64,000 nucleotides of DNA from the NCBI GenBank assembly GCA_018920345.1, contig JAHLMN010000007.1, positions 2-64,001 on the forward strand. The letters run 5' to 3'. Under the pieces are notes generated by a model. That model was not told the DNA's origin. It ran no database searches and saw only the letters and a program-made list of their open reading frames with translations. The DNA is from Candidatus Aenigmatarchaeota archaeon (lineage in GTDB: Archaea > Aenigmatarchaeota > Aenigmatarchaeia > CG10238-14). Each line of letters begins with the position of its first letter. Positions within the stretch are counted from its first letter, which is position 1. This document shows positions 5,720 to 58,446 of this stretch, one piece after another. Made by a program: the position numbers and the translations under genes.

Positions 5720-5988
5720 TTGTCGCTCCCTTTTATTGCTAGTACACTTACTGAAAATGGCTTTCCACAAACTAGACCTAAATTGACATTGTCATTATCA
5801 AATTCTTTAACTTCCACTTTGGCTAATTTTGCATTATGTAATATTGTTTCTTTTTTATCTTTAGGCAAGTTATTTGCAATTATAATCATCTTTGGCTTTC
5901 CACTTTTAAGCATTTTAATAACTCTATTATAGCCTAAAACAACTTCGTTTGCTTTCACCTTTTCTTGTATTAAATTAACTAAACTCAT
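5716..5988 (-). CDS. rpl30e: 50S ribosomal protein L30e
   Basis: L7Ae/L30e-fold sequence ([24 protein letters not shown]). Conserved position between rpoA'' and nusA. Confidence 0.9.
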
Positions 5989-7115
5989 TCCTCTTCACCT
6001 ATTCTAGCTACTAACTCGAACATTCCTGTACCAACAGGCACTTGTTGATTTATCATTACATTATCAAATATTCCTTCAAACTCGTCAACTTCATTTCTTA
6101 CTGAAGCTTTAACTAGGTGTTTTATTGTTTCTTCAAAGCCAGCTCTTGATAAAACAGCTGACTGTGTACCAGCAACGCCATATCTTCCTACTGCTCTTAT
6201 CTCACCAGTCAAACTCATTATATCAGCAACAACAGTTATATGCCTTTCGTCTACATTTAAACCTTGTTGCTTTAAAGTATCATTTATTTCTTTTATCAAG
6301 ACATTTCTTGCTGCTTCTATACCTAAAACAGAAGCGACTTCATGAATATTATTAGAATAAGTTTTTGTTGAATCAACTTCTTCCATTTTCAATACATACT
6401 CTAAATTAGAGCCAAGGGTTTTTACGACCCAATTTTCACCTTCTTTAACAACTACAGCATTCTTTATGTTTTGAACACCTGTAACATATAAAGCTAAAAC
6501 CTTCTTTTTCAACTTCTCTAGCTCTTTTATAGAAGTGTCTTGTTTAGCTTGAATGACAACTGATTTTTGAGCCTCTTTAACTTCAAAACCTTTTAATGAT
6601 TTTTGAAGTCTAGCAATAATTTCTTCCATTTCGCTCTTCTTTGCCTTTTCCAAAACAATTTTTATCTTTTTATTCGTTAAATCTGTTGAAACTTCTGTAG
6701 CATAATACTTGACTTTTTTCTCCTTTATCATCTTTGCAAATTCTTCTGCCTTTTCTTTTGTGTTATATTTTTGTTTCAAATATATTGTCATCATTGGTGT
6801 TGTAGGCTCTTTTCTTGCATCAAATATTTCTATTAGTCTAGGTAAACCTAAAGTAACTTGAATACCCGCAGAAGCCGCAAAGTGATAAGTACGCATAGTC
6901 ATTTGTGTTGCTGGTTCAGAAATAGATTGAGCAGTAATAATACCTATTGCCTCTCCTGGTTGATACATGCTTTTTAAATATTCTTTTCTAACTTCCTCTA
7001 TTAGTTTTGCTTTCTGCTGTTCATTAAGCTTTTTCTTAGCACAAACAGACTCTATTTGATCTACAATTGATTTAGGTAAATCATCCAAATAATCTTTCTG
7101 CAATTTTTCCGACAT
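5985..7115 (-). CDS. rpoA2: DNA-directed RNA polymerase subunit A''
   Basis: Trigger-loop region [24 protein letters not shown] at 7115 is preceded by AAGGTGGT and overlaps the 3' end of the upstream ORF by 35 nt. Confidence 0.95.
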
Positions 7116-10100
7116 CAATACCACCTTTTTGTATTCTTGATGGATCCAAACCATCTTCAGCAGGCACAAATTGTATTATCTTTTTCGAAGCATCCCTAAC
7201 AGTGCCATCATATTCTACTTTTAAATCTTTTAAAGCACCTATTAATCTTCTTTCCAAATAACCACTATGTCTTGTCTTTAATGATTTATCCATAAGACCT
7301 TCTCTACTATTCATTGCATCAAAGAAGAATTCGAATGGTGTCAATCCTGTTTTATAACCATGTCTTACAAAACCTTTTGATTCTAAACTTATATCACCTC
7401 TTTCAAAATGAGGTAATGTCCTCTTATAATAGCCAATTTTTATTCTTTCACCTCTTATTGTTTCTTGGCCTAAACAAGCAATGCATTGAACCATGTTGAC
7501 TAAACTACCTCTTGCACCACTTTTAGCCATAATATAAACAGAATTTTCTTGTATACTCTTAGATACTATACTTGTAATCTCATTAAGCAAGTCGGCTAGT
7601 TTTATTTTAACTACAGATTCAAATGTTTCTCTAGGTGTTTTACCTACAATTCCTTTAATCTTACCTTTTTTGAAGTCTTTTATTAAATTATTTACATCGT
7701 CTTTTGCATCATCCAAAAGCTTGTTTATTTTTTCTATCACTTTTGGATCCACATCATAATCAGAAACAGAAACAGTAAAACCATATCTTGTCAACACTTC
7801 TAAAGATAATTTTGTAATGTTAAACAAGAACTTTCTTGCATATTCTCCACCATATACCTTTTCTATTTCATCCAATATTTTTCCTTTGAATGCACCAACA
7901 CCACTTTCATCTATGAATCCCTCTAATTGACCGTTCTTAATAACAATCTTCGTCTCACCTTTTGTGTATTCAAAATTAAAGTCTTTAGGCAAGAATAAGC
8001 TGAACAATTCTTTGCCGTCAAATTCTTTCTTGTTTGGTATTTCAACAGAAGAATCGCATGCTTTAACAATAGAAACGGCATCTTTTCTTGAAAACTTCAT
8101 TTTTGTTGTTAGTAAATACAAACCTGTAATATGATCATTTATTGCACCTATTATTACACTGCTAAATCTTGGGCTTCTAAATTGAGTAGAGACTTCTGTT
8201 AATAACTTTGTTTCTACTTGTGCTTCTTTTGTTTGTGGTATATGTAAATTCATTTCATCTCCATCAAAATCAGCGTTATAAGGTGGTGCGACAGTTAAGT
8301 TAAGTCTTAAAGTATTCCAAGGCATTACTCTAACTCTATGACCCATCATACTCATTCTATGTAAAGAAGGTTGTCTATTAAAGACTGACCAATCACCATC
8401 CTCTATCTGCTTTTCAACAACATAACCTGGCTCTAACTCTTTTATTATATCTGCCTTGTTCAACTCTGTTACTTTCTTTCTTCTTCCATCTGGTCTGTTA
8501 ACATAATTTATTGTTGGCCATTCAGGATATCTTTCTATCATTTGCTTTATCTTCTCTATATTTCTTTCATTAACAACCACTGGTACTGTTAATTCTTTAG
8601 CAACAGACAAAGGAACTCCGACTTCGTTTATATCCAAAAATGGATCAGGACTAATAACAGTTCTAGCAGAATAATTAACTCTTTTACCTATCAAATTGCT
8701 TCTAAATCTACCTTCTTTTGTCTTTAATCTTTGAGCTAGTGTCTTTAGCACTCTGCCAGATCTATGTCTAGCTGGAGGCACACCACTTATTTCATTATTC
8801 ATATAAGTAGCTACATGATATTGCAACAATTCCCACAAATCTTGAATTATAAATTCAGGCGCACCCAAATCAATATTTTCTCTTAATCTCTTGTTTATTC
8901 TAACAATATCTACAAGTTTATGCGTCAAATCATCTTCTGATCTCTCTCCTGTTTCTAAAGTGATAGAAGGTCTTACCGTAACAGGAGGTATAGGTAACAA
9001 AGTTAAAACAAAATACTCTGGTCTTGTTCCTTTTATCCCAAGATATGTACTAAGCTCAGTATCAGGTATTTTTTCTAACCTCTCTCTTACTTGAACAGGA
9101 TCTAATATATCATTATCTTCTTGATAAGTTGTTGGTTTTATGTATTTTATTTTTCCTTGTTTTTCCTTACAATATGGACATGTGTTCTTTATTAATGTCT
9201 TTAATTTCTTTAGAGATTTTTTGCCTGATTTGAATTTTTCTGCATCCTCTGGTGTTATTAAAACTTTGCCACAATTTCTACAAGTAAATCTCAAAATATT
9301 GTAAATCAATTTTGCATAATTAACATGAATAACAGGTTTTGTTAACTCTAAATGGCCAAAATGACCCTTGCATTCACCTACTGTGCCGCCACATGTTCTG
9401 CATCTCAATCCTGGATCAATAACACCCAATCTTGGATCCATTAAACCTCCTTCTATTGGATAACCTTCTTGATCATACAATTCTGTTTTGCTAATTTTGG
9501 AAGCAGATATCTTCTTTATCATTTCAGGTGTCAAAACACCAAATATTATCTTATCTATAATCGACAACTCTTCATCAACAACAACTTTTGGATATATTAC
9601 CATACTCTTCAATTCATCAAGCAATAGTTTGAATGCATAAGACATATCTATATCTACTATTTTAGAGCCACCACACATTGGACAGAATTTTTTGTTTTTG
9701 ACTCTATCGTTTATTGCCTCTACACCACAATCTTTACATATAGGGATTGAAATCTTGTCAGAATCAAATCTTTCTTTCAAAAGCAATGATGCGCCATGAG
9801 CAATCAAACAATCTTTTTCCATTTCACCTAATCTCAATCCACCCATTTTAGATTTACCTTCTGTTGGTTGTTTAGTTAATAATGTTACAGGGCCTTTTGA
9901 TCTTGAATACATCTTATTTGAAACCAGATGATCAAGTTTTTGATAATAAACACTGCCTATCAATATTTTATTCATCAATTTCTCTCCATTTCTACCATCG
10001 AACATCGTTTCTTTACCATCGTCATCATAACCATACTTCTTTAATGTTTCTCTAATTTGCTTTTCATTTAGTGGATGGAAAGCAGGACTATATAATATTT

Positions 10101-11361
10101 CTCCTGTTATTGCAGCAACTTTAGCAGAAATAATTTCTAAAAGTTGTCCTATAGTCATTCTAGATGGAATACCATGAGGATTGAAAATTATATCAGGCAC
10201 AATGCCTTCTTCAGTAAATGGCAAATCTTCTTGATTTATTATTAAACCTAATACACCCTTTTGTCCATGTCTACTTGCAAATTTGTCACCCAATTCTGGT
10301 ATTTTCAAATCTCTTACAACTACCTTTACAAGTTTGCTTCCCTCATAACTCTCTGTTATAAAAACTCTATCGACAATACCCTCGTTACAATGCTTTAATC
10401 TTACAGAAGTTTCTCTTATGTTCTCCAAACCTGTTGTGAATTGATCCAAACTACCTAAGAATCTTAATGGAGAGGATTTACCTATTAACACATCATCTTT
10501 CTTAACATATGTTTCTGGGTTGGCTATACCATCTTCAGGTAAATGTTTGTAAGCATCTTCACCTGCATATCCTCTTATACCTGGCTCTGGTATTCCAATA
10601 ATATCTTCTTGACCACCCAAATATCTCTTTTCTTCAGCTTCATAAGTTCTAAACATATATGACCAAAATAACCCTCTTTCAATAGATGATTTATTAATAA
10701 CAACAGCATCTTCCATATTATAGCCTAAAAAAGACATTAATGCGATTACAACATTGTGTCCACCAGGATGATCTTTATCATTTATTATATCATTCATATG
10801 TGTTTTTATTAAAGGCACTTGAGGATATATCATAATATTTGCCTTTGTATCAACTCTTACAGGATAGTTAAGGCTATATATGCCTATAGCTTGACCTATC
10901 ATTTTACCGCCAAAATTAACTCTATCTCCTCTATCAAATTCTGCGAAAGGAACAAGTGATGTGGCTACACCCATTATAATAGTTGGATCGAGCTCTAAAT
11001 GTGTGTGTTTTGTAGTTAAATCTTCTGGTCTTAAAGCAATTAAAGCATTCTCTTCTTCTGTTGCATCTAAATATTCTATTATACCCTGGTTAACTAAATC
11101 ACTCCATTTCATCTTTCCGGTTTCTAGAGCATTTATATGCTCTTTTGTTAGTTTTGGTTTCCCATTTTCCACAACTATTAAAGGTCTTCTAGCTCTACCA
11201 GAATCTGTAGATACCATCACAATATCAAAATGCTCTAAATAAGCAACATTAAGTTGATTAGACAACAAGCCTTTTCTTCTTTTTTCTCTCAAAGATTCTA
11301 CAAACTTTTTAGGATCTTTTACTTTGCCAAAATATCTTCCGTCAAAAAACACATCAGTCAT
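7081..11361 (-). CDS. rpoB1-rpoA1: DNA-directed RNA polymerase, fused subunit B' (C-terminal half of B) plus subunit A'
   Basis: The N-terminal ~595 aa carry B' motifs ([12 protein letters not shown], zinc ribbon CKDCG...[17 protein letters not shown]). From ~aa 600 the ORF carries A' motifs (zinc CRTCGG...[17 protein letters not shown] catalytic loop). One uninterrupted 1,426-codon ORF. Confidence 0.9.
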
Positions 11362-12869
11362 TTTTTCTCAACCTCTTTTGACAGTATATCTTCAATAATC
11401 TTAATCTCTTTTTCAGTTGCACCTTTAGTAATTTGGCCCATTATTGCTAAATATTTTCTCAAACCTATAGTTGCACCTTCTGGTGTTTGTGAAGGATCAA
11501 TTTTTCCCCATTGTGTTGGATGCAACACTCTAGCTTCAAAGTGCTCTTGTGTGGATGTTAATGGAGACAATACATTTCTTGTATGTGAAAGTGTTTTAAC
11601 AAAACTTCCTCTCTCTAATCTTTGTGAAACACCTGTTCTTCCACCAACCCAAGCACCAATTGCTATAGCAGATGTAATTTGATTTGTCAAAACACTTGAC
11701 TCTACAATAGATTGTAATGGTGGAAATCTTCCTCTTTTTGTTAACTTCTGATAATTGTAAGTTATCCTTGTTATCAAGCCCCATTTACCAAGTAAAACTG
11801 ATCTAAATAATATTTCAAGCAAATCTCCTGACAATTTTAATCTTTTATTTGAATAATGATCCAAATCATCTTTTGGGGATTTTTTCAAATAATGTCTTAT
11901 AACTTTCTCACATGCTTTAACTAGATATAGAGCCTTTGTATATCTATCCTTCTTTTCTTGACCTAAATGAGGAAGCAAATATTTATCTAAAAGTTTATTG
12001 ACTTTATCTTGTCTATATTCTTTTTGTGTTATTTTCAAAAAGTCTGCTATTTCTTCTATAGCTTCTTTGGCTGTTGCAGATTCTGTTTCAAACAAATTTG
12101 GATAAAATTCTTGTTGTACTTCAGGATCATCTGACAAAGTCATTATAATATCTCTATCTGTCTCTAAACCTAAAGCTCTAAGCAAAACTACTATAGGCAA
12201 CTTGTTAACATTTGCAAAATTTATTCTTATTATACCATCTGCTCTTCTTTCAATTATATGTCTCTGTATATAACCATCTTTTTCAGAATGAATTCTTGCA
12301 ACTTCGGTAACATTAGGTGTACTAGGTTTTTCAACTATTATCTTATTTGGCGATATTTCCTCTATTAAAACCAATACTCTTTCTGTACCATTAACAATAA
12401 AATATCCGCCTGGATCATCAGGATCTTCTCCTGCTTTTATTAATTCATCTCTATCCATTTTTGACAAAGGACATATCTTTGATTTAAGCATAACAGGCAA
12501 ATCACCAAAATTAACAGTTACTGTTTCACTTTCAATATCATTCAAAGTTGGTGTCATTTCAAGATACATTGGGGCTGAATAAGTGAGGTTTCTCATTCTA
12601 GCTTCTAGTGGTAATATAGGTCTTTCTGAGCCATCTGCTTCCTTAACCCATGGACCCCATACATCTGTCCCAAGAGGCTTTCCAATCTTGCATTTTCCTA
12701 GCTTAATTCTAAAATCACCCAAGTCAGGAACTTCTGGTTTTATTTCCTTTATTTGTTTTATTATTGATTGTATTCTATTTTCAATAAAATCATTATAAGA
12801 ATCTATCTGAAATTTTACTAAACCTTCTTCTTTCACAAATGACTTTAACATTGACATATATTCTTTCAT
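11358..12869 (-). CDS. rpoB2: DNA-directed RNA polymerase subunit B'' (N-terminal half of B)
   Basis: Rpb2 N-terminal (protrusion/lobe) region homology. ATGA overlap with the downstream B' reading frame. Confidence 0.94.
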   Translation of the reverse strand: MKEYMSMLKSFVKEEGLVKFQIDSYNDFIENRIQSIIKQIKEIKPEVPDLGDFRIKLGKCKIGKPLGTDVWGPWVKEADGSERPILPLEARMRNLTYSAPMYLEMTPTLNDIESETVTVNFGDLPVMLKSKICPLSKMDRDELIKAGEDPDDPGGYFIVNGTERVLVLIEEISPNKIIVEKPSTPNVTEVARIHSEKDGYIQRHIIERRADGIIRINFANVNKLPIVVLLRALGLETDRDIIMTLSDDPEVQQEFYPNLFETESATAKEAIEEIADFLKITQKEYRQDKVNKLLDKYLLPHLGQEKKDRYTKALYLVKACEKVIRHYLKKSPKDDLDHYSNKRLKLSGDLLEILFRSVLLGKWGLITRITYNYQKLTKRGRFPPLQSIVESSVLTNQITSAIAIGAWVGGRTGVSQRLERGSFVKTLSHTRNVLSPLTSTQEHFEARVLHPTQWGKIDPSQTPEGATIGLRKYLAIMGQITKGATEKEIKIIEDILSKEVEKK

Positions 12870-12875
12870 AATTCA

Positions 12876-13130
12876 TCATTCCTCAACAACTAATCTATAA
12901 TAAACAACTTCCTTAGCTATATTACTTTTTCTTATTATTTTTATCAGATCTCCTGGTTTTGCACCTATTGCCCTAACAGCAGGATCGCTAGCTTTTATTT
13001 GTGGGAATTGATTCATCTTTGTTATTCTATACTTTTCCATAACTTTTTGTTTTTCATCTTCAGAAACAATGTAATGTTTTGGCACAAGCTCATGGGAAAG
13101 CACATCTATTTTATTTTCTTGTTTCAACAT
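12876..13130 (-). CDS. rpoH: DNA-directed RNA polymerase subunit H (Rpb5-like)
   Basis: 84 aa with HELVPKH, PQIKASDPVA-like and GDLIKIIR motifs. First gene of the rpo operon. Confidence 0.92.
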   Translation of the reverse strand: MLKQENKIDVLSHELVPKHYIVSEDEKQKVMEKYRITKMNQFPQIKASDPAVRAIGAKPGDLIKIIRKSNIAKEVVYYRLVVEE

Positions 13131-13144
13131 ATCACCTTTTTTTA

Positions 13145-13248
13145 CGCTCTGGCCGGGATTTGAACCCGGGTCACGGGAGTTCTGCCTATAGTTGACAGTC
13201 CCGTATGATTGGTCTCTAAATGATTAGGCCGAGCTACACCACCAGAGC
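13145..13248 (-). tRNA. tRNA-Asp(GUC) with two introns: about 16 nt in the D-loop and 13 nt at the canonical 37/38 site. No encoded CCA.
   Basis: Hand fold: acceptor GCTCTGG/CCAGAGC, discriminator G, T-arm CCGGG-TTCAAAT-CCCGG, anticodon stem CGGGA/TCCCG, loop CTGTCA[ACTATAGGCAGAA]C. The D region is about 16 nt too long and is flanked by an AATCAT direct repeat. Confidence 0.85.
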
Positions 13249-13346
13249 AAATAAGAATTTTTTTATTAAAAGAATTTATAAAAATTTTTGTTATTTGGTG
13301 GGGGTGGGCTCTTTCAATCAATAACAGGTCACCGTTTAAGCGTAAA

Positions 13347-13464
<118 letters not shown>

Positions 13465-13483
13465 TGTGATTATGTTATTAAAA

Positions 13484-13593: not shown

Positions 13594-14532
13594 TTATCCT
13601 CTAACTGTGTTTGGCTGATTTTGAATAATATTTGATTCTCCATAGCATACATATAGCTTAGGTGAAGAGAAGAATCCTAAAAATCCAGGTTTCTCTTCTC
13701 TTGAAAGTGCGCAGCCTGTATTTATATTATATTTTTGCTCTAATGTACTAGCCAATCCTTTTAAGTCAGAGCTTATTCCTATACCTATTTTTTTCGAAAT
13801 TTGTTTTAAAGATTGAACAGGTATTTCGCCTTTGTATATTTTACCAACAATCTCATCTAAATCAGCATTTTTCGGAACACAAACAGTGACACGATAAATA
13901 TATTCTAAATCAACTTCGCTGGCTCCTCTACCCATAGGTGCTATATCTACTTGTTTCAATTGACCATCAGGACAAACTTTTGCTTTAACAGGGAACACTT
14001 TTTTTGCAGCAGAAGCTGTTGTTGTTGTAATTCTAACATTTACGGGAACTTGACTTTTTGGAATACATTCTCCTCTATAGCAAACTAATCCAGTACAGCA
14101 TTTCTTGCCAACTTGACACTCGCCGCCTTCTTGAACACATGAAACTGTTATGTTTTTTGTTGTTTTTGGTGTAGTTTTAACTGTGGTGGTTTTTGTTGTT
14201 TTTGGTGTAGTTTTAACTGTGGTGGTTTTTGTTGTTTTAGAACAATAACTATCAGGACATCTTACAACACCACTATTAGCAAAACTACAAGAAGCTGTGC
14301 TGCTACAAGAAGGTGAACAGTAACAACCATAGGAACTTTTTGTTGTAACAGATGTTTTTGTTGTCTGTGCAGAAATTTTTGTTGTTTCAATTGTCTTTAT
14401 TGTAGTTATAGCTATTTTTGTTGTTGCCGATTTAGTTGTAGTAAATCCTTCATCAACATAAGAATATGCTATATTGGTAAGAAGCAATAAAAATAATATT
14501 GAAAAAAACATTGTTTGAATTATTTTCCTCAT
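13594..14532 (-). CDS. Secreted Thr/Lys-rich, Cys-rich protein of unknown function
   Basis: N-terminal signal peptide (FFSILFLLLLTNIAYS), T/K-rich low-complexity stalk with a tandem repeat, and two cysteine clusters, one with knottin-like spacing. Confidence 0.7.
   Translation of the reverse strand: MRKIIQTMFFSILFLLLLTNIAYSYVDEGFTTTKSATTKIAITTIKTIETTKISAQTTKTSVTTKSSYGCYCSPSCSSTASCSFANSGVVRCPDSYCSKTTKTTTVKTTPKTTKTTTVKTTPKTTKNITVSCVQEGGECQVGKKCCTGLVCYRGECIPKSQVPVNVRITTTTASAAKKVFPVKAKVCPDGQLKQVDIAPMGRGASEVDLEYIYRVTVCVPKNADLDEIVGKIYKGEIPVQSLKQISKKIGIGISSDLKGLASTLEQKYNINTGCALSREEKPGFLGFFSSPKLYVCYGESNIIQNQPNTVRG
14154..14236. repeat. 36-nt in-frame tandem repeat (2 perfect copies plus a partial) encoding KTTKTTTVKTTP
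   Basis: tttggtgtagttttaactgtggtggtttttgttgtt occurs at 14165-14200 and again at 14201-14236. Confidence 0.9.
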
Positions 14533-14718: not shown

Positions 14719-16125
14719 TCACTCTACTTTTTTCGAAAAAAATACAACTTTTTCAGCTATTTTACTTATTACAATCTTGCCAGATTTATAGCTAAAGTAT
14801 GCTTTAGGTAATTTTATTTTGCCTTCAACATTCATTACTGGTTTTATTCTATATGTCAATACTCTATCTTCTTTAGGCCTCAATTTATCTATCTTCCATA
14901 TTAAAGTCGTACCTGTTTGTGTTACTTTTACCTCTGGCTTTAGTGTATCAAATTCTTTGACGACGGCAAATACAGATGGTACAGTATCTTTAACAACTAC
15001 ATTATGTATCTCTCTTATTGAATTATTTCTTACATGTAAAGTAACCAAATTTCCTTTCTCTAAATTAGTTATTTCTGAATATTTTTTTAGTAATGTTGGT
15101 TTATGGAATAATGTTAAAATAAAGCTTATAAAAAGCAATATTAAAAATGTCACAAAAGCAGCGTTGCTAAATCTCAAGTAATATTTTATTGTATAAGACG
15201 TGTTTGGCTCTATCTCACTAGTTATCCATGTATATATTACTCTATTTTCTTTTTCTTCCTCTTTTTGTGGCTCTATCTCAGGATAGAAGAAGTATTTCGC
15301 AATTTTTGGCATTGTCTCTGTAATAACAAAAGATTGAGGATAATTGCCTTTATTAGTTACATTTATCAAAAATTCTGTTTCAAGCAAAGATCTATAAATT
15401 TTTTTGTCTTTTTCAAAATCACTATATTTCTTTATAACAAAAGCAGATGTTTTTGAATGTATTGGTGAACCAAACTTGTCATATATAAAAACTTGAATAT
15501 TATATGTTCCTGGTGAATAATCATTTGTTATTTCAAATGGTGTTGAAATAGTTTTTGTTGAAGAAGGTTGGAGTAAAGCTTGCTCTTCGAACATTTTTAT
15601 TTGATTACCATCTTTGAATATTTTTGTTCTTATTATTAGTTGCTTACTTTGGGTTTTATCCAAATTAACTAAAACAGGTTGAATTAACAGTGTCTCTTTT
15701 GGTGACAAAATATCTTGATTTAGTTTAATATCAGAAATATATGTACCCGTTCTTCTTCTAACATTTAATATTATATCTTCTGTTGTTACATTACCACTAT
15801 CAGTTGATCTTGCAGAAACAGAAAATACTATATTACCTATATTTGCATCTATTGGAGGCTCTACTGAAAATTGAACTACCTCGGATTTTCCTGGATCAAG
15901 TACAACAAAATATTTTTCTAGACTTATCCAACTACTTGGCCAAACGCTAATATAGAATGTTTCTTTTTTGTCACCATCATTTGTCAATCTAAATTTAACA
16001 AAAGATTTTTCCAAAGTATAAACTGTCTCAGGATGATCAATAAATTCTATTTTTAAAGCATAAACATTGCTAAAAGTTAACAAAAAAAGCAAAATCAAAA
16101 TTTTTTCTTTCAATTTAAACACCAT
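14719..16125 (-). CDS. Membrane-anchored surface protein with repeated beta-sandwich (CARDB/NEW3/DUF11-like) segments
   Basis: Signal peptide, internal TM helix (AAFVTFLILLFISFILTLF), and recurring segments such as FVKFRLTNDGDKKETFYISVWPSSWISLEKYFVVLDPGKSEVVQFSVEPP, typical of archaeal cell-surface domains. Confidence 0.6.
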   Translation of the reverse strand: MVFKLKEKILILLFLLTFSNVYALKIEFIDHPETVYTLEKSFVKFRLTNDGDKKETFYISVWPSSWISLEKYFVVLDPGKSEVVQFSVEPPIDANIGNIVFSVSARSTDSGNVTTEDIILNVRRRTGTYISDIKLNQDILSPKETLLIQPVLVNLDKTQSKQLIIRTKIFKDGNQIKMFEEQALLQPSSTKTISTPFEITNDYSPGTYNIQVFIYDKFGSPIHSKTSAFVIKKYSDFEKDKKIYRSLLETEFLINVTNKGNYPQSFVITETMPKIAKYFFYPEIEPQKEEEKENRVIYTWITSEIEPNTSYTIKYYLRFSNAAFVTFLILLFISFILTLFHKPTLLKKYSEITNLEKGNLVTLHVRNNSIREIHNVVVKDTVPSVFAVVKEFDTLKPEVKVTQTGTTLIWKIDKLRPKEDRVLTYRIKPVMNVEGKIKLPKAYFSYKSGKIVISKIAEKVVFFSKKVE

Positions 16126-24767: not shown

Positions 24768-26375
24768 ATGCAAGAAAAAGAGTTTGCTAAACTTTTCTTT
24801 AAAGAGTTTAAAAGAAGAGACATAAAAAGTAAAGAAGATGTTGCTAAACTTAAGAGAGAGCTCTGTATAAAGCTGAAAATAAATGAAGAGCCCACCAATC
24901 CTGATATATTAAAATATGCTAGCGAAAAATTCATAGAAAAATATGGCGAATTAATGGGAATAAAACCTACTAGAACTATATCAGGTGTAGCCACTATAAC
25001 TGTTTCTTGCAAGCCAGGCTATTGTGGAGGAAGATGCACTTATTGTCCTCCTATGAGTAAAATAGTGCCTAAAAGCTATTCTGCCAATGAGCCTGCTATT
25101 CAGAGGGCTATAAGAAATAGATATGATCCTTATAAGCAAGTAAGAGACAGGCTAAACCAATACAAGATAATGGGTCATCCTACTGATAAGATAGAGATAA
25201 TTGTAATAGGCGGGACATTTCTTGCTTTGGAAAAAGACTATCAATATAAATTCATTAAAGGTATTTTCGATGGCTTAAACGGCAAAAGAAGCTCTAGCTT
25301 GGAAGAGGCTAAAAAATTAAATGAAACAGCAAAACATAGGTGTGTAGGCTTAACTATAGAAACAAGACCTGATTATTGCTTCGAGGAGCATGTTGATAGG
25401 CTACTTGATTTTGGCTGCACAAGAGCTGAGATAGGCATACAATCGATATATAATGATGTCCTGGATAGAGTAAAAAGAGATCATCATGTTGAGGAAAGCA
25501 TCAAAGCAATACAAATAGCAAAAGACAGCTCTTTTAAGATTATAGCCCATATAATGCCTTTTTTACCGGGATCAAATGTTGAGAGAGATATAAAGATGTT
25601 TGAAGAAATTTTCACAAATCCAGATTTACAAGTCGATGAATTCAAGATATATCCTTGTGTTGTTGTGCCTGGTACAGAACTTTACAAAGAATGGAAAGAA
25701 GGTAAATACAATCCGCCTACTTTAGAAGAAACAATAAGGGTTATAGTAGAAATGAAAAAAATTGCACCGCCATGGATAAGATTTAGAAGGATATTTAGAG
25801 ATATACCAGCTAATGAGATAGCAGCAGGGCCTAAAAAAAGTAACTTGAGAGAGCTTGCTATAAGTGAATTGAAAAAGCAAGGAAAGAGATGTAGATGCAC
25901 TAGATGTAGAGAACCTGGACATGCAAAAAAGATTTATGGTGTGGATGTAGACGAAAAAGAGATAAAGCTAGTAAGAAGAGATTATGATGCTTCTGGTGGT
26001 AAAGAAATATTTCTATCATTTGAAGATACAAAAAATGATGTGTTGATCGCTTTACTAAGGCTAAGGATGCCTTACAAGCCACATAGAAAAGAGATTGATG
26101 ATAAAACAGCCTTGATAAGAGAAGTTCATACATATGGAAAAATGGTGCCTATAAATAAAGATGATGTTAATGGTTGGCAACATAGGGGTTTTGGTTCTTT
26201 ATTGCTTAGAGAAGCTGAAAGGATTGCTAGAGAAGAATTTGATAAGAAGAAGATGATAGCAATATCCGGAGTAGGCGTAAGGCATTGGTTTATGAAGTAT
26301 GGCTACGAGCATGAAGGGCCTTTTATGAGCAAAACAATCCTAAAAGATAATTTTTTTGTTGACAAGAAACATTAG
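24768..26375 (+). CDS. elp3: Elongator protein 3 homologue (radical SAM plus GNAT; tRNA cm5U34 synthase)
   Basis: Radical SAM CGGRCTYC (CX3CX2C), GGTFLAL, GLTIETRPDY, GCTRAEIGIQS, and the C-terminal GNAT block QHRGFGSLLLREAERIA. Confidence 0.92.
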   Translation: MQEKEFAKLFFKEFKRRDIKSKEDVAKLKRELCIKLKINEEPTNPDILKYASEKFIEKYGELMGIKPTRTISGVATITVSCKPGYCGGRCTYCPPMSKIVPKSYSANEPAIQRAIRNRYDPYKQVRDRLNQYKIMGHPTDKIEIIVIGGTFLALEKDYQYKFIKGIFDGLNGKRSSSLEEAKKLNETAKHRCVGLTIETRPDYCFEEHVDRLLDFGCTRAEIGIQSIYNDVLDRVKRDHHVEESIKAIQIAKDSSFKIIAHIMPFLPGSNVERDIKMFEEIFTNPDLQVDEFKIYPCVVVPGTELYKEWKEGKYNPPTLEETIRVIVEMKKIAPPWIRFRRIFRDIPANEIAAGPKKSNLRELAISELKKQGKRCRCTRCREPGHAKKIYGVDVDEKEIKLVRRDYDASGGKEIFLSFEDTKNDVLIALLRLRMPYKPHRKEIDDKTALIREVHTYGKMVPINKDDVNGWQHRGFGSLLLREAERIAREEFDKKKMIAISGVGVRHWFMKYGYEHEGPFMSKTILKDNFFVDKKH

Positions 26376-27492
26376 CTAAATATTCTATTATAGTTTTCCA
26401 ATTGTCTCTGGCAAAAATCCAACTATCTATATGATTATATGTTTGTTCAACAAAAAAATCTTCCTGTTTCAATAAATCAGATAATATTTTTAAAATATCT
26501 TTAACACTATTCGTTTTATTTTTTTTATATGAATAACATCTTGCAGCTTTAGAAATTCTTTCTCTTGTATCTTTTAAAACACCCTCTGTCTGTTCTCTTA
26601 TATATTGTTTGAGTTCATCTAAAGGTAAACTTGGTTGACTTAATAATTTATTAACTACTCTTTCGACTATTATCCCTATTATCTCACCTTTTATAACATC
26701 AACAATATATCCGGGTCTTTTTCTATGTATTACACGGGCATTTGGTGTATAAACATTTATACAACCACTATTCATTTTTTGATTTAAATATGCTTGAATT
26801 TCATCTTCTCCTCTCATTGATATATCTGTTATCGAAGAAATATAAGGTATTAAAAGGGCTTCGTCACATCTAGATAAATTTCCCCCTCTTGCACCTTCAA
26901 TACCATATTTGAAATTTTCAAAAACTTTGGCAGGTGTAATTGCACGTATGATATTTTCAATTTCTGAATTTTTTGGATTTTTTAAATAATTGATCAGCGT
27001 CTCTATACCCACATAAGAGTCGTGGTTTTCATAAGGACCTGTGACAAGAGTAATTTTTTTCCCTTTATTTGTTGTGGTTCCTAAAAGTCTAATATGCTCT
27101 TTAAAAAAGCCTTCCTTAACCTCTTCGTCATCATCTAAATTTATAACACCAACATTATATTTATTGCAAAATAAAACAGCTAGAGCTGTTAATAAATTTC
27201 TAGCACCACCATATGTTCTAAAATTGAATAAAGCTTCTAGCTTTTGTCTATTAAAACATAATTTATTGTTTAATAATAAAATAATTCTTTTCATATTATC
27301 TGGACCAAAATAAAAAATATTATTAAAACCAAAAATATCTCTCCACAAAGGTGCAATAGTGGGATCATCGGTTTGACCAAAAACAATTATTGGAAATTGT
27401 TGATATGTAGGCTCATTAAAAATAGAATATAGACATCTATAAACTTCTGCTCCTCTTTCTCGGGTGGTCGGTATAGTAACTACATAATCCAT
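26323..27492 (-). CDS. Uncharacterised protein with GT-A-like glycosyltransferase features (DxD)
   Basis: N-terminal VVTIPTTRE strand, YGGARN, and the acidic NLDDDEE cluster are reminiscent of nucleotide-sugar GT-A enzymes. The C-terminal ~120 aa look helical. Family not identified. Confidence 0.45.
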   Translation of the reverse strand: MDYVVTIPTTRERGAEVYRCLYSIFNEPTYQQFPIIVFGQTDDPTIAPLWRDIFGFNNIFYFGPDNMKRIILLLNNKLCFNRQKLEALFNFRTYGGARNLLTALAVLFCNKYNVGVINLDDDEEVKEGFFKEHIRLLGTTTNKGKKITLVTGPYENHDSYVGIETLINYLKNPKNSEIENIIRAITPAKVFENFKYGIEGARGGNLSRCDEALLIPYISSITDISMRGEDEIQAYLNQKMNSGCINVYTPNARVIHRKRPGYIVDVIKGEIIGIIVERVVNKLLSQPSLPLDELKQYIREQTEGVLKDTRERISKAARCYSYKKNKTNSVKDILKILSDLLKQEDFFVEQTYNHIDSWIFARDNWKTIIEYLANVSCQQKNYLLGLFCS

Positions 27493-40091: not shown

Positions 40092-40790
40092 TTATTTTTT
40101 ACTTATATATATTTCCTTGAAAAAATCCTCTTGCTCAGCTGTTATATCACCTCTATTGGCCAAATATAATAAAGGTAAAAAATGTTTTACAATTTCTTCT
40201 CTTTCCCATTTATCAACTAACCTTGAAAACTCTACTTTTTCTTTTTTTAACAATTTAGTCAAATCTTCTATTTCTTTAAGCAAATTTTCAATTCTTTTTT
40301 CAATATCCTCTTCACTAACATTTATATGATTTGCAACTTTTTTACCTAATGCATGTCTTCTATATTCTTTTCTTTCTTTTACTTTCATTGCTTTTCTTAG
40401 AGCTTCAACCAATTCATCTAAAGTAACTGTTCTTGTAGGCATACGTTCCAAAGGAGGAGTAAGTTTTATTTGTTGTAATTTTTCTCTTAATTCTTTGAAT
40501 TCATCTTCATTTATTTCTGGTATTACACTTTCTTCTTCTTTCTCTTTTGGAAACAGTGTCTCTGTCTTTAACTTAAGTAATATTGCCGCAACAAAAACTA
40601 TTTTTGCAGGGATTCTAAAATCAAGCATTTTTATATTCTCGATGTATCTCAAAAAAGAATCAGCAAGTTTTACTATGTCTATGTCCCAGGGATCTAAGCC
40701 TTCTATGCTTACTATATTATAAATTACATCTTCCCATGATTCACTTTCCATAACAGTTTTTAGCAAATCTTGCTCTGTTAATTTATTCAT
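40092..40790 (-). CDS. scpA: Segregation and condensation protein A (kleisin ScpA)
   Basis: ScpA N-terminal pattern (GLDPWDIDIVKLADSFLRYI...FRIPAKIVFVAAILLKLK). Overlaps the smc stop. Confidence 0.8.
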   Translation of the reverse strand: MNKLTEQDLLKTVMESESWEDVIYNIVSIEGLDPWDIDIVKLADSFLRYIENIKMLDFRIPAKIVFVAAILLKLKTETLFPKEKEEESVIPEINEDEFKELREKLQQIKLTPPLERMPTRTVTLDELVEALRKAMKVKERKEYRRHALGKKVANHINVSEEDIEKRIENLLKEIEDLTKLLKKEKVEFSRLVDKWEREEIVKHFLPLLYLANRGDITAEQEDFFKEIYISKK

Positions 40791-43278
40791 TAGGCATCTC
40801 CAGTCCTAATATCTTTGATTCACCATTTTCCATAGCAACGCCATAAACTTTGTCAGCTTGTTTAATTGTATAATCGTTATGTGAAATTAGTATAAATTGA
40901 TCCTTTTCTGATAGTTTTTTGACCATGTCTATAATTTTTTTAGTATTCAATTTATCAAGAAATGCATCTATCTCGTCAAGTATATAAAATGGAGCTGGTT
41001 TATACATTTGTACAGCAAACAAGAAAGCTAAAGCTGTTACTGACTTTTCTCCACCTGACATTGCATCTATATTTAAAACAGCTTTGCCAGTAGGATTTGC
41101 TTTAATGATCAAACCGCTTTCAATATTTAGTGGGTCTTCCAATTCTAAAGAAGCTTCACCACCAACTATCTCTTTGAATACTTTTTGAAAATTTTCATTA
41201 ATACCGCTCAAAGTTGCATAAAATACTTCTTTTCTCTTCTCTTCTATTTTTTCTATCATCTCGATTATTGATTGCTTCTCTTTATTTATAGTATCATACT
41301 TTTGTTTTAACTCATCGAACTCTATTTTAAAAGCATCATATTCTTCTATAGCCTTCATGTTAACTAAGCCCAAAGAATTTAACTCTCTAACAGCATCCTG
41401 TATTCTCATCTCAAGTATTTCTGGTTTTTCATCTATGAATTCAATATCGCCGTATCTCTCTGCTTCAATTCTATAATTTTCTAACTCTGCTTCTAGTTTT
41501 GCTGCTTTTATTTTTGTTTTATTTATTTTATTTTGTAAAACAATTCTTTCCTCATATAATTGCTTTCTTTTATCTTTCAATTCTTCTATATCTTGCTCTA
41601 TTTTCTTTCTTTCTTCTTCTAGTAAAGCTATTTCTTTATCTTCTTTTTCTTCACTCTTCTTTAATTCTTCCATTTTTTTCTCTATTTGTTCTATTTCAAC
41701 TCTCAAAAAGTTTATCTCTTCAGCCAATTCTCTTTTTGCTTGCATATATTCACTTATTTCTTTATCCGGGCCAAACATCTCCTTTTTCTGATAAAAACCT
41801 CCTATCATTGCACCTGTTGGCTCTATTAAATCTCCATCAAGTGTGACCATTCTGATACTTCCTATACCAATATCTCTAGCAACTCCTAAATTTTCAACGA
41901 TAATAGTATCTCCGAAAACATGCTCAACAGCAGCAGCATATTTTCTATCATAATTTATTAGATCTGTTATTAGTCCTATTACTCCGGGTTTTTTCAATAT
42001 AGCTTTTTGTTCAGGTGATAATTTTTTTGGTTTTATTTTGTTTAAAGGTAAAAATGTCGCTCTTCCTATTTTTTCTCTTTTCAAATAATTTATACATTCA
42101 GTTGCAATCAAAGTATCTTCAACAACTATATTTTGTAATCTATTTCCACCAGCAACTTCTATTGCTATCTCATATTCATTAGGTACTTGAATAAGTTGAC
42201 TTATGACACCATAAACTCCTTTTCTATTCAAATCAAGTATAGCCTGAACGGCCTTACCAAAATCTTTTCTTTCTTGTTTCAAAAACTCCAACTTTTCAAT
42301 CATTTGATTTATTCTGTCTATCTCTCTTGTATGTGCATCTATTCTTGCTTCATTTCTGAAAATTCTATTTCTCAATTCTTCTATTTCTTGTCTCAAGTAA
42401 CTTCCTTTCGAACGAACAAACATTTTGTTTGCTATTTCCTCTTTTCTGGCTTCTGCTAACTCTAAATCTTTTTCTACTTTTTTTATCTCATCTTCTAACT
42501 CCTTTATTTCTGTTTCTACGTCCAATGCTTCGCTATCAGCTTTTTTAAAATCATTAAGTAAATAATTGTATTTTTGTTTAGCCAAAGAAGCTTTCAAAAT
42601 CTCTAAATTCTTTTGTAAATCTTTATATCTTAAAGCGATATTTCTATCATTTTCTAACTCAACTAATCTTTGCATTCTCTCAGAAATAACTATTTCAACT
42701 TCCTTTAGCTTTAATTCAACTTTTTCTAGATTTGCTTTAGCTTTCTCTTTTTTTTCGTTATATTGACTTATACCAGAAATATCATCTATTATGAGCCTTC
42801 TTTCTTCAGGTGTCATTTCTATAACTTCGTTAACATCACCCTGCATTATTATGTTGAAGCCATCAGGGTGTATTCTAGCTGCAGATAAAACCTCTAATAT
42901 TTTTTCTCTAGTTGTTGTTTTTCCATTTAATTTAAATAAACTCATCCCACTTTTATTCACTTTTCTAGTTATAGATATCTCTTCTTCTTCAAAAGGAAAT
43001 ATCTTGTTTTTATTATCAAACCATAATGTAACTGAAGCTTGATCAGCAGGTGGGATGCTTTTGCTACCATGATATATTAAATCATGAAGTTTATCTGCTC
43101 TTAAAGATTTTATAGAAGTTCTTCCCAGTGCAAAACATATTGCATCTAATATGTTTGTCTTTCCCGACCCGTTAGGCCCTGCTATTACAGTTAAGCCTGG
43201 AAATAATGGTATAGATACTCTTTTTCTGAATGATTTAAAGCCCTGCATACTTATTTTGGTAATTCTGGTTTCGGCCAT
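40783..43278 (-). CDS. smc: SMC chromosome segregation ATPase (unusually short, ~831 aa)
   Basis: Walker A GPNGSGKTN, hinge (GVYGVISQLIQVPNEYEIAIEVAGGNRLQNIVVE), signature MSGGEKS, Walker B FYILDEIDAFLD. Confidence 0.9.
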   Translation of the reverse strand: MAETRITKISMQGFKSFRKRVSIPLFPGLTVIAGPNGSGKTNILDAICFALGRTSIKSLRADKLHDLIYHGSKSIPPADQASVTLWFDNKNKIFPFEEEEISITRKVNKSGMSLFKLNGKTTTREKILEVLSAARIHPDGFNIIMQGDVNEVIEMTPEERRLIIDDISGISQYNEKKEKAKANLEKVELKLKEVEIVISERMQRLVELENDRNIALRYKDLQKNLEILKASLAKQKYNYLLNDFKKADSEALDVETEIKELEDEIKKVEKDLELAEARKEEIANKMFVRSKGSYLRQEIEELRNRIFRNEARIDAHTREIDRINQMIEKLEFLKQERKDFGKAVQAILDLNRKGVYGVISQLIQVPNEYEIAIEVAGGNRLQNIVVEDTLIATECINYLKREKIGRATFLPLNKIKPKKLSPEQKAILKKPGVIGLITDLINYDRKYAAAVEHVFGDTIIVENLGVARDIGIGSIRMVTLDGDLIEPTGAMIGGFYQKKEMFGPDKEISEYMQAKRELAEEINFLRVEIEQIEKKMEELKKSEEKEDKEIALLEEERKKIEQDIEELKDKRKQLYEERIVLQNKINKTKIKAAKLEAELENYRIEAERYGDIEFIDEKPEILEMRIQDAVRELNSLGLVNMKAIEEYDAFKIEFDELKQKYDTINKEKQSIIEMIEKIEEKRKEVFYATLSGINENFQKVFKEIVGGEASLELEDPLNIESGLIIKANPTGKAVLNIDAMSGGEKSVTALAFLFAVQMYKPAPFYILDEIDAFLDKLNTKKIIDMVKKLSEKDQFILISHNDYTIKQADKVYGVAMENGESKILGLEMPNE

Positions 43279-43317
43279 AATGATCAGCAATAAAATAATA
43301 GTTATTCAAATCTAAAT

Positions 43318-57117: not shown

Positions 57118-57191
57118 TGGGTTCGGCCGGATTTGAACCGGCGATTTCTGCCATGTGAGGGCAGCGTCTTAACCAACTGGACCACGAACCC
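57118..57191 (-). tRNA. tRNA-Val(CAC), intron-less, no encoded CCA
   Basis: Acceptor GGGTTCG/CGAACCC, A73, anticodon arm CTGCC-CTCACAT-GGCAG, T-arm GCCGG-TTCAAAT-CCGGC. Confidence 0.9.
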
Positions 57192-57192
57192 G

Positions 57193-58446
57193 TCAATATT
57201 CAAATAAATTTTTTTGAGGCAAGTTTTTTATTTTTTCTTCACTGAAAATTGGTTCTCCATAAACACCATCATATCCTGGCCTAAATTTTATCTTCTCCTC
57301 TCTAACAGCTATAATTGCTTTTGCTATTTTTTCGCTCGTATATTTTATCAATTCGTCTAAAGAAGAATTTAGAATTACATTCAATTCATTACCAAAAACT
57401 TTTATTAATTTGTTTTGTTCTTCCTCAACCTTTTTTGAATATAATTGCTTTACCCCAAGGCTAAATGAAATTATTTCGTATAAAGGTAACAAATGTTTGA
57501 AAGGTATAGCATTTTTTGGAATAAAACCTTCGTCTCTATCAGCCAACTCTTCTACTCTTTGCAAAACTCCTATAGTCATTGTCTTCTTACAAACAGGGCA
57601 AATATTTTTTAATTTCAAAGCTTGCTTGGGGTGCATAAAAACATTGCATTGTCTATGTCCTGTGAAATGATATTTGCCATAGTTTGGGTCAACTTCTATT
57701 GTATACAAAAATCTTTTATTATCTTTTTCTTTTATTGCATCCCATATTTTCCAATAGTCTGGCTCTTTTAATTCAAACACATTTGCCTCTCTGCCAAGTC
57801 TCCATGGCCATGGTGAGTGCGAATCAGAATTCGAAAGCAAAGCAAAATCATCTAGCTGAGACAAACGCCAATTCATAGAAGGATCGCTACTTAAACCTGT
57901 TTCCAAAGCATGTATGAATTTTGTTTTTTCTTTATAGCATTCTTTTATTGAATCATATCCAGTTATACTGCCCAAACAACCAAAATAAGGTGTCCATATG
58001 TGAGCAGGAACAATTTGAATGTCATTGCTTATCTCCTTAAGAATTTCAACAAACTCTTCTGAGCTTATTTTTATAATCATTCTTCCATCTATTCCTGTGT
58101 TAGCACCTTTTTTTGAAAAAATATCTATTATTTGCTCTATAATTTCTATACTAGGTACATGAACAATGTGATGAATTCTCCTAGATTTTTTATCTTCATA
58201 ATAAAAAGTAGCCATTTCTGTTGTAAGCATAAAATAAACATCATCATAAATATACAATCCTTTATCTTCTAAAGGCTCTAATTTTGTTTTTATATCTTTC
58301 AATTGGTCTGGAAAAGTAAAATCTCCTGTACCCAATAAATTAATGCCTTTAATTCTTGCGTATTTAGGTAATATAGATATATCCATTTCTTTGCTTGTTG
58401 CTCTTGCATATTTACTATGTATGTGAAGATCGGCTATAATTTGCAT
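57193..58446 (-). CDS. endoQ: Endonuclease Q (PHP-domain deaminated-base endonuclease)
   Basis: ADLHIHSKYARATS PHP motif, GTGDFTFP, and the zinc finger CPVCKKTMTIGVLQRVEELAD. Length matches archaeal EndoQ. Confidence 0.8.
   Translation of the reverse strand: MQIIADLHIHSKYARATSKEMDISILPKYARIKGINLLGTGDFTFPDQLKDIKTKLEPLEDKGLYIYDDVYFMLTTEMATFYYEDKKSRRIHHIVHVPSIEIIEQIIDIFSKKGANTGIDGRMIIKISSEEFVEILKEISNDIQIVPAHIWTPYFGCLGSITGYDSIKECYKEKTKFIHALETGLSSDPSMNWRLSQLDDFALLSNSDSHSPWPWRLGREANVFELKEPDYWKIWDAIKEKDNKRFLYTIEVDPNYGKYHFTGHRQCNVFMHPKQALKLKNICPVCKKTMTIGVLQRVEELADRDEGFIPKNAIPFKHLLPLYEIISFSLGVKQLYSKKVEEEQNKLIKVFGNELNVILNSSLDELIKYTSEKIAKAIIAVREEKIKFRPGYDGVYGEPIFSEEKIKNLPQKNLFEY

Follow-up and report, generated by a model that had tools for sequence, protein, structure and literature searches.

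An in-frame rpoB'-rpoA' gene fusion in Aenigmatarchaeota, with evidence pointing to its repeated origin

Introduction

The two largest subunits of RNA polymerase (RNAP) occur as a natural covalent fusion in Bacteria, where beta and beta' (rpoB-rpoC) are joined in Helicobacteraceae and in Wolbachia (as cited in PMC7483510). Here we describe an archaeal counterpart in a 64,000-nucleotide stretch of DNA from a Candidatus Aenigmatarchaeota archaeon (contig JAHLMN010000007.1; this whole stretch is called the window hereafter), in which the genes for RNAP subunits B' and A' form one open reading frame (ORF). As in the bacterial fusions, the C-terminus of the second-largest subunit is joined to the N-terminus of the largest, the starting point is a pair of adjacent or overlapping genes of one operon, and the fusion is lineage-specific. 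However, the bacterial fusions join complete beta to complete beta', whereas the window joins B' (the C-terminal half of B) to A' (the N-terminal two-thirds of A) through a two-residue joint, keeps B'' and A'' separate, and belongs to a single phylum in which the fused or unfused state has changed 7-9 times. PMC7483510 cites Zakharova et al. (1999) and Lane and Darst (2010) for the natural beta-beta' fusion, and the title of the former paper reportedly mentions 'fused and overlapping' states among relatives.

Archaeal RNAP is known for splits of its A and B subunits and for a secondary re-fusion of A' with A'' in Pacearchaeota (Da Cunha et al. 2017, PMC5484517). In the Pacearchaeota case, too, split large-subunit genes of RNAP have fused secondarily within a fast-evolving, small-genome DPANN lineage, but that fusion restores the ancestral single subunit A, whereas the window joins two different subunits. 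An engineered relative also exists. In the 'rClamp' of PDB entry 3QQC, a short linker connects Pyrococcus furiosus B residues 1053-1115 to A' residues 3-318, which are followed by an A'' segment (Martinez-Rucobo et al. 2011, PMC3094117). The construct is folded and binds Spt4/5, and the same study describes the clamp as made of three pieces, one being the C-terminal part of B and another the N-terminal part of A' (PMC3094117). Its B-to-A' connection lies where that of the window does, but it is an artificial domain with an A'' segment, and neither a full-length natural subunit nor an active polymerase.

Compared with the canonical split operon of Euryarchaeota and most DPANN (rpoH-B''-B'-A'-A''), the window has the same gene order and downstream genes, the same B''|B' split between Rpb2 domains 3 and 4, and the same A'|A'' split inside Rpb1 domain 5. 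It differs in having no stop and start between B' and A', and so encodes three large-subunit polypeptides and not four; in its unfused sister locus L045 these four measure 499 (B''), 598 (B'), 844 (A') and 378 (A'') amino acids (aa). The collections searched contained no joint of the B'-A' type from other lineages of archaea or from eukaryotes. The first-pass annotation of the window knew of no description of this architecture in archaea, and our full-text literature searches, whose incomplete coverage makes them no proof, likewise gave no report of a B-A' fusion. The words 'fused' and 'fusion' are absent from the text of a 2026 survey of archaeal RNAP subunit evolution (PMC13257274), and a 2026 preprint analysing the Aenigmarchaea B'' subunit mentions no B-A' fusion.

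Results and Discussion

The fused gene and its parts

The fused gene is a 1,426-codon ORF with an ATG start at 11361..7081 on the minus strand, and its initial description as a single rpoB'-rpoA' frame is borne out by the ORF listing, the translation and the Pfam domains. Rpb2 domains 4-7 (PF04566, PF04567, PF00562, PF04560) occupy aa 4-594 and Rpb1 domains 1-5 (PF04997, PF00623, PF04983, PF05000, PF04998) occupy aa 601-1421, all with scores far above the gathering scores. The B' half retains the motifs GDKF (aa 358) and RHGQKG (aa 364) and a readable C-terminal Cys4 zinc ribbon (CxxC...CxxC), while the A' half retains the catalytic, metal-binding NADFDGDE (aa 1029) and the zinc sites of the clamp core; the zinc-binding cysteines are intact on either side of the joint. 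The computed mass of the whole chain, 161 kDa, comprises a B' module of 67 kDa and an A' module of 94 kDa. Module coordinates were set by comparison with locus L045, in which B' is exactly 598 aa long:

9568..11361, minus strand: B' (Rpo2C) module, aa 1-598 (Pfam; comparison with L045)
9562..9567, minus strand: joint, L599-S600 (TTG TCG), two codons (DNA comparison with relatives)
7084..9561, minus strand: A' (Rpo1N) module, aa 601-1426 (Pfam; PDB sequence matches)
7083-7081, minus strand: stop codon (TGA) of the fused ORF

The B' module ends in ...YPKVVVDEE, co-linear with the ...YPKLIVKEE* of unfused relatives, and I601 stands at the position of their A' Met start; Rpo1N chains in the PDB align to the fused ORF from their own residues 3-7. 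The junction had been placed at about 9562-9585, which is essentially right and can now be narrowed to 9567-9562. The translation and codon table confirm that neither stop nor ATG separates the conserved blocks of the two subunits, so that an uninterrupted frame crosses the B'/A' boundary with no stop, ATG or Shine-Dalgarno (SD) sequence at the joint. An intein, an insertion or a long linker at the joint was ruled out by its two-residue length and by a gapless alignment to P. furiosus sequences. Overall, we consider it highly probable that this is a genuine, functional rpoB'-rpoA' fusion, most likely translated as one 161-kDa chain that assembles with B'' and A''. The data below show the ORF and its conservation, the path at the DNA level, the recurrence, the predicted hairpin and the match to the engineered clamp, whereas single-chain expression and its functional consequences are inferred.

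Distribution of the fusion

We searched 5.8 billion clustered proteins and analysed the best 120 matches (90%-identity clusters). Full-length fusions made up 116 of these, with query coverage of 99-100% and identity of 53-99%; 87 were 1,417-1,461 aa long and 29 were 1,909-1,932 aa long, and the remaining four clusters were truncated or partial records. The fused clusters come from NCBI, JGI, ENA and Logan, and the named sources among the best 120 are nearly all Candidatus Aenigmatarchaeota (or Aenigmarchaeota), the proteins being annotated merely as "subunit A'" or "subunit B". The 90% cluster of the window protein has 13 members, 11 of them full-length (1,425-1,426 aa) and encoded on independent contigs from the same four sources, one of 780 kb. 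In the 120-sequence alignment the junction is near-fixed, with ...IYPK followed by 8-12 variable residues and (I)xKIxFGxLSPE, and across these homologues the joint holds neither a conserved Met nor a conserved start codon. The fusion is thus conserved in related genomes and is not a one-off error.

Alignment of orthologous loci, which the first-pass annotation had proposed as a check, revealed the same in-frame junction in 17 GTDB species. For this, a junction profile was run against a single genome from each GTDB species, and we classed the resulting 80 loci by their reading frames (13 loci missed by the motif pattern were classed by eye), obtaining 17 fused and 63 unfused loci. The B'-A' fusion occurs in about half of the Aenigmatarchaeota species sampled, and fused and unfused species are interleaved within the phylum. 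Samples of groundwater, hot springs and lake sediment are the source of loci L001, L005, L009 and L014. Outside the core Aenigmatarchaeota clade none of 43 loci is fused. These include Woese-, Nano- and Pace-type DPANN, Altiarchaeota and Hydrothermarchaeota, one locus labelled Methanobacteriota, one unclassified 'archaeon', a divergent SYAFKLTLDE group (L033, L034, L049) that is itself partly labelled Aenigmatarchaeota, and many mislabelled metagenome-assembled genomes (MAGs); in most of the 43, the A' N-terminus is longer. A fusion common to other DPANN was ruled out, given that the Woese-, Nano- and Pace-type, Altiarchaeota and Hydrothermarchaeota loci align to the whole query only by running over stop codons.

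The origin of the window in Aenigmatarchaeota is supported by its closest homologues and loci, which carry that name (as given by depositors), and by its grouping with L001 and L002 at 100% bootstrap. Names in these collections call for care. Loci L019, L020, L024-L026, L028, L030 and others illustrate this: RNAP operons of DPANN type occur in many GTDB representative MAGs that bear the title 'uncultured Methanosarcinales archaeon'; L019, titled 'uncultured bacterium', has an Aenigmatarchaeota-type fused gene; and protein P0077 bears a Woesearchaeota label, yet groups with the fused family. Mislabelled taxonomy thus looks widespread in these MAGs, and has been remarked elsewhere too (bioRxiv 10.64898/2026.06.17.729505).

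A HMMER search of 1.84 billion 50%-identity representatives collapsed the family into one representative and so was of little use for its internal spread, but among the top 150 of these representatives just two other proteins join B to A', P0165 and P0208, both very distant (32-36% identity). P0165 (2,214 aa, on one 18.7-kb Logan contig) combines Rpb2 domains 1, 3, 4, 6 and 7, domain 4 being weak and under the gathering score, with the whole of Rpb1 domains 1-5. Its domain content makes it a compact single-chain B+A'+A'' catalytic core, which may come from a virus, a plasmid or a highly reduced cell. P0208 (1,665 aa, on 10 contigs of up to 79 kb, with the JGI name RPB2) has a eukaryote- or virus-like look and is truncated.

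Origin of the fusion

Comparison of the junction DNA shows how the two frames came together. Unfused relatives read ...TAT CCA AAR nnn nnn nnn AAA GAG GAA TGA AT ATG... or ...AAG GAG GAG TAA A ATG..., so that the last B' codons (K-E-E; AAAGAGG) double as the SD of A', and the B' stop overlaps the A' ATG or precedes it by 0-6 nucleotides (nt). Fused genes show a length difference of 1-2 nt over this segment and no stop. The first-pass annotation had attributed the covalent B'-A' subunit to loss of a stop codon: the covalent subunit stands, whereas a simple stop-to-sense substitution gives way to 1-2 nt frame-joining at overlapping or abutting stop and start codons.

We built a neighbour-joining tree (100 bootstraps) from the concatenated B' C-terminal 585 aa and A' of 60 complete loci, 30 from Aenigmatarchaeota (including the window) and 30 from other DPANN. 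Among the 30 Aenigmatarchaeota, Fitch parsimony requires nine changes between the fused and unfused states on the observed tree; all bootstrap replicates require 7-9. Four clades mix the two states:

L009 fused; L078 and L079 unfused; 85-88% identical; bootstrap 100%
L004 and L005 fused; L077 unfused; bootstrap 100%
Window, L001 and L002 fused; L045, L061 and L080 unfused; bootstrap 100%
L013, L023 and L037 fused; L016 unfused, with unsplit B; bootstrap 100%

Every fused lineage is backed by several independent database sequences. These patterns point to a fusion that is not a one-off and that arose repeatedly within Aenigmatarchaeota from an unfused ancestor, since the outgroups are unfused, the unfused subclades have a common SD-stop-ATG layout, and the joints of the fused subclades are unrelated. 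In such an ancestor the A' SD would have consisted of the final codons of B' (AAA GAG G..), with the B' stop overlapping or abutting the A' ATG; a change of 1-2 nt would remove the stop and join the frames, and the SD and ATG would decay afterwards. Because a junction of this kind is easily made and hard to reverse, the event would recur in ratchet-like fashion, reaching a single B''-B'-A' chain in some lineages.

The alternative history, in which the genes fused once, early, at the base of Aenigmatarchaeota and then split again many times, is unlikely. The Fitch count carries no direction, several deep branches are fused (L031, L059 and the clade with full B), and fused genes that keep GAGG and an ATG, as in L002, could revert by a small indel. 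Nevertheless, every one of the 43 loci outside the core clade is unfused, and the unfused subclades share a detailed ...AAAGAGG-stop-ATG layout, whereas the joints of the fused ones are unrelated; gaining SD, stop and start together is moreover harder than losing them.

Triple fusion and a speculative stepwise consolidation

The 29 longer clusters (1,909-1,932 aa) also hold Rpb2 domains 1-3 and therefore contain B'', B' and A' in one chain. At the locus level, a chain of Rpb2 domains 1-7 and Rpb1 domains 1-5 followed by a separate A'' was seen at L037:2782-8532 (plus strand) and also at L013, L023 and L059; in L037, rpoH is followed by the 1,916-aa B-A' gene and then by A''. The corresponding proteins are P0070, P0085-P0087, P0089-P0096, P0099, P0102-P0104, P0106-P0117 and P0119. 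Because B is split in all outgroups, the unsplit B of these Aenigmatarchaeota looks like a secondary B''-B' re-fusion, probably a repeated one (P0070, the L059 group and the L013 group). Locus L016 (WANL01000021.1), which the tree places beside the triple-fused clade as its sister (100% bootstrap), has an unsplit B (~1,073 aa before the C-terminal motif) with a separate A', its junction reading ...KIRVKE* and then GTG...IGAIEF; it may represent an intermediate state or a reversal.

Fused clades persist. Identity is 76% between the window and L002 and ~66% within the clade with full B, and such long persistence shows that the fusion is at least not harmful. Whether it is also beneficial is a separate matter. 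That the repeated fusions are adaptive, a stepwise consolidation of the RNAP core from B''+B'+A'+A'' through B''+[B'A']+A'' to [B''B'A']+A'', seems to us doubtful. If it were true, the driver would be the securing of clamp assembly and stoichiometry in ultra-small, chaperone-poor, host-dependent cells, the tether would alter clamp dynamics or the usage of Spt4/5 and TFE by lineage, and the phylum would supply archaeal polymerases in a natural series towards a single chain.

Probable translation across the joint

SD strength was expressed as the energy of the duplex with the anti-SD, in kcal/mol. The TTG at 9567-9565 (L599), singled out at the outset as the only alternative in-frame start in the linker and as having no convincing SD, is the sole TTG at the joint and scores -2.4, weaker than the mean of the in-frame ORF background (-3.6), against -7.5 to -9.3 at the other operon-internal starts of the RNAP and ribosomal-protein cluster; the strongest anti-SD duplex anywhere in the joint of the window is -4.8. 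In contrast, an A' SD was present in all 15 scored unfused relatives (-5.8 to -10.7), together with stop and ATG. The former A' SD of the window has decayed to GAAGAG, and SD decay recurs over the fused lineages. In the closest relatives, ATGAATATG has its first ATG at the position of this TTG and its second at that of the ATT at 9561-9559, and the joint TTG TCG is the leftover of a former stop/start overlap (ATGAAT in relatives). Loss of A' translation signals in the window argues for a true single-chain product, and the covalent subunit proposed by the first-pass annotation gains support from this loss of SD and ATG as well as from the many species and assemblies that carry the fusion.

Translation from the ATG at 11361 would then yield the 161-kDa B'-A' chain, which would join B'' and A'' in RNAP. 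B' and A' would be made strictly 1:1, no re-initiation would be needed at the junction, and recruitment of Rpo1N would be intramolecular once Rpo2 had docked on the Rpo3/11 platform. In Methanococcus, RNAP assembly is hierarchical (Rpo3/11 platform, Rpo2'/2'', Rpo1 modules) and sensitive to stoichiometry (PMC13556214).

It is improbable that the ORF gives two proteins, with A' also or mainly made separately, either through initiation at TTG 9567 or ATT 9561 or through proteolysis at the joint; B' and A' would in that case still be separate in the enzyme. TTG starts are usable in archaea, this TTG matches an ATG position of the closest relatives as noted, and a Met codon is kept at the joint in several fused relatives. 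However, the TTG lacks the SD that the other operon-internal genes possess, SDs have decayed over the fused lineages, the 120 homologues have no conserved start codon there, and the predicted tight 4-residue hairpin turn (see below) is a poor protease site.

Some observations weigh against our interpretation as a whole. Translation table 11 allows both TTG (9567) and ATT (9561) as rare start codons, so low-level internal initiation is possible, and an in-frame Met is kept at the joint in the fused L002 (EEMNT), L003 (DNMV), L004 (NLMK) and L009 (EEMR). As regards history, the tree is a neighbour-joining and not a maximum-likelihood reconstruction, and the direction of change (fusion versus fission) is argued from mechanism and outgroup and is not proven. 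Finally, any functional benefit is purely inferred, and near-neutral drift fits the pattern equally well.

Two further explanations of the fused ORF have next to no probability. An assembly or sequencing artefact, in which a 1-2 nt indel error merged separate genes, could be imagined in that unfused relatives are just 1-2 nt off in junction length and one error could create the ORF, but full-length fusions in independent assemblies (11 proteins at at least 90% identity) effectively exclude it, the identical in-frame junction recurs in 116 of the 120 best clusters and in 17 GTDB species, and the window lacks the SD, stop and ATG found in every scored unfused relative, which goes beyond one indel. 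Nor is the ORF at all likely to be a decaying or redundant copy with working genes elsewhere: the window spans 64 kb of the genome and a second copy could sit elsewhere, but the ORF lies in the canonical rpoH...EF1a operon, keeps all catalytic and zinc motifs with Pfam scores far over thresholds, and is conserved at full length down to 53% identity, which implies long-term purifying selection. A pseudogene was ruled out by the same intact motifs and operon position.

Predicted structure of the joint

The linker had been proposed for modelling on a polymerase structure, and we modelled aa 525-920 with AlphaFold2 from a 49-sequence alignment (predicted template modelling score 0.78). The model places a beta-hairpin at the joint, with a first strand at aa 589-596 (IYPKVVVD), a turn at 597-600 (EELS) and a second strand at 601-609 (IIDKIIFGV); the prediction is confident (mean predicted local distance difference test score of 87-92 by 10-residue block). 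Its best structural match in the PDB is the engineered B-A' clamp, 3qqc_A (template modelling scores 0.75/0.77, root-mean-square deviation 3.4 A, 369 columns), followed by Rpo1N chains of solved archaeal RNAPs. A HMMER sequence search of the PDB with the junction region also gave 3qqc_A as best match, gapless through the joint, with the engineered GG falling at E598-L599 of the window. Native B of P. furiosus and Thermococcus kodakarensis ends two residues past the position of E597, and residue 3-6 of native A' aligns at S600/I601. Given this gapless joint and these native end positions, the natural fusion adds essentially no linker.

The prediction and the engineered precedent together indicate that the joined termini would adjoin in the folded enzyme. 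The C-terminal strand of B' and the N-terminal strand of A' would pair antiparallel as neighbours within the clamp, and because the strands are neighbours within one clamp unit, two extra residues could close the hairpin without strain. With both ends in one rigid, mobile clamp module, they should shift as one on clamp opening, and the tether should not hinder the opening and closing of the clamp.

Operon context and neighbouring genes

The gene order rpoH-B''-[B'A']-A''-L30e-NusA-S12-S7-EF2-EF1a is that of the canonical archaeal cluster. The features that flank the fused gene are as follows:

12876..13130, minus strand: rpoH (Rpo5), first gene of the RNAP large-subunit cluster (Pfam RNA_pol_Rpb5_C, E=2e-29; SD duplex -9.2 kcal/mol)
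11358..12869, minus strand: rpoB'' (Rpo2N), separate gene (Pfam Rpb2 domains 1-3; C-terminus ...SKEVEKK*)
11371..11375, minus strand: SD of the fused gene, GAGGT, within the last B'' codons (duplex -7.9 kcal/mol)
5985..7115, minus strand: rpoA'' (Rpo1C), separate gene, 377 aa (Pfam Rpb1 domain 5; SD duplex -9.3 kcal/mol)

Both neighbouring boundaries are as initially described. B'' and the fused gene meet in an ATGA overlap at 11361-11358, and A'' has its own SD, AAGGTGGT at 7127-7120, with an ATG at 7115-7113. The 5' end of rpoA'' shares 35 nt with the 3' end of the fused ORF (7081-7115) in a different frame, unlike the 4-nt ATGA overlaps of the other boundaries; an overlap of this length may explain why the A'|A'' boundary is unfused in every locus examined.

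Gene starts in the window fall into two classes. Many have a strong SD (-6 to -14 kcal/mol), including the operon-internal RNAP and ribosomal genes, and most of the others have AT-rich upstream sequence and no SD, consistent with leaderless or first-in-operon genes. Directly upstream of rpoH lie two minus-strand ORFs with no Pfam match, 13594-14532 (312 aa) and 13142-13465 (107 aa); three more such ORFs on the same strand are at 60910-63900 (996 aa), 57193-58446 (417 aa) and 26323-27492 (389 aa), and the ORF at 14719-16125 has a weak match to the DUF11 repeat and to nothing else in Pfam. SMC proteins are typically about 1,150-1,200 aa long; the one encoded at 40783-43290 (minus strand) has 835 aa, with N and C head halves and hinge recognized by Pfam and with coiled-coil arms well below the length expected of an SMC. 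The window contains just one tRNA gene, Val-CAC (57118-57191).

Significance

The fusion described here is a natural, recurrent large-subunit RNAP fusion newly seen in Archaea, with a triple-fused extreme, and is apparently unreported. For RNAPs of archaeal or eukaryotic type we found no earlier description of the two catalytic subunits being covalently linked in nature, so this case would be the first, and the parallel with Helicobacter and Wolbachia would make the same joint permissive in all cellular RNAP lineages. Our understanding of transcription mechanism is unchanged unless the tether proves functionally important. In practical terms, automatic annotation as "subunit A'" or "subunit B" can confuse marker-gene extraction in DPANN, completeness estimates and RNAP phylogenies, and the fused and triple-fused proteins are ready designs for a tethered archaeal RNAP in recombinant expression, assembly and structural work. 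For the phylum itself, so many transitions amount to a rare natural replicate experiment on gene fusion, one in which the path can be followed at the DNA level from an SD within coding sequence through overlapping stop and start codons to frame joining and signal decay. Aenigmatarchaeota consequently allow tests of whether such fusion is ratchet-like or adaptive.

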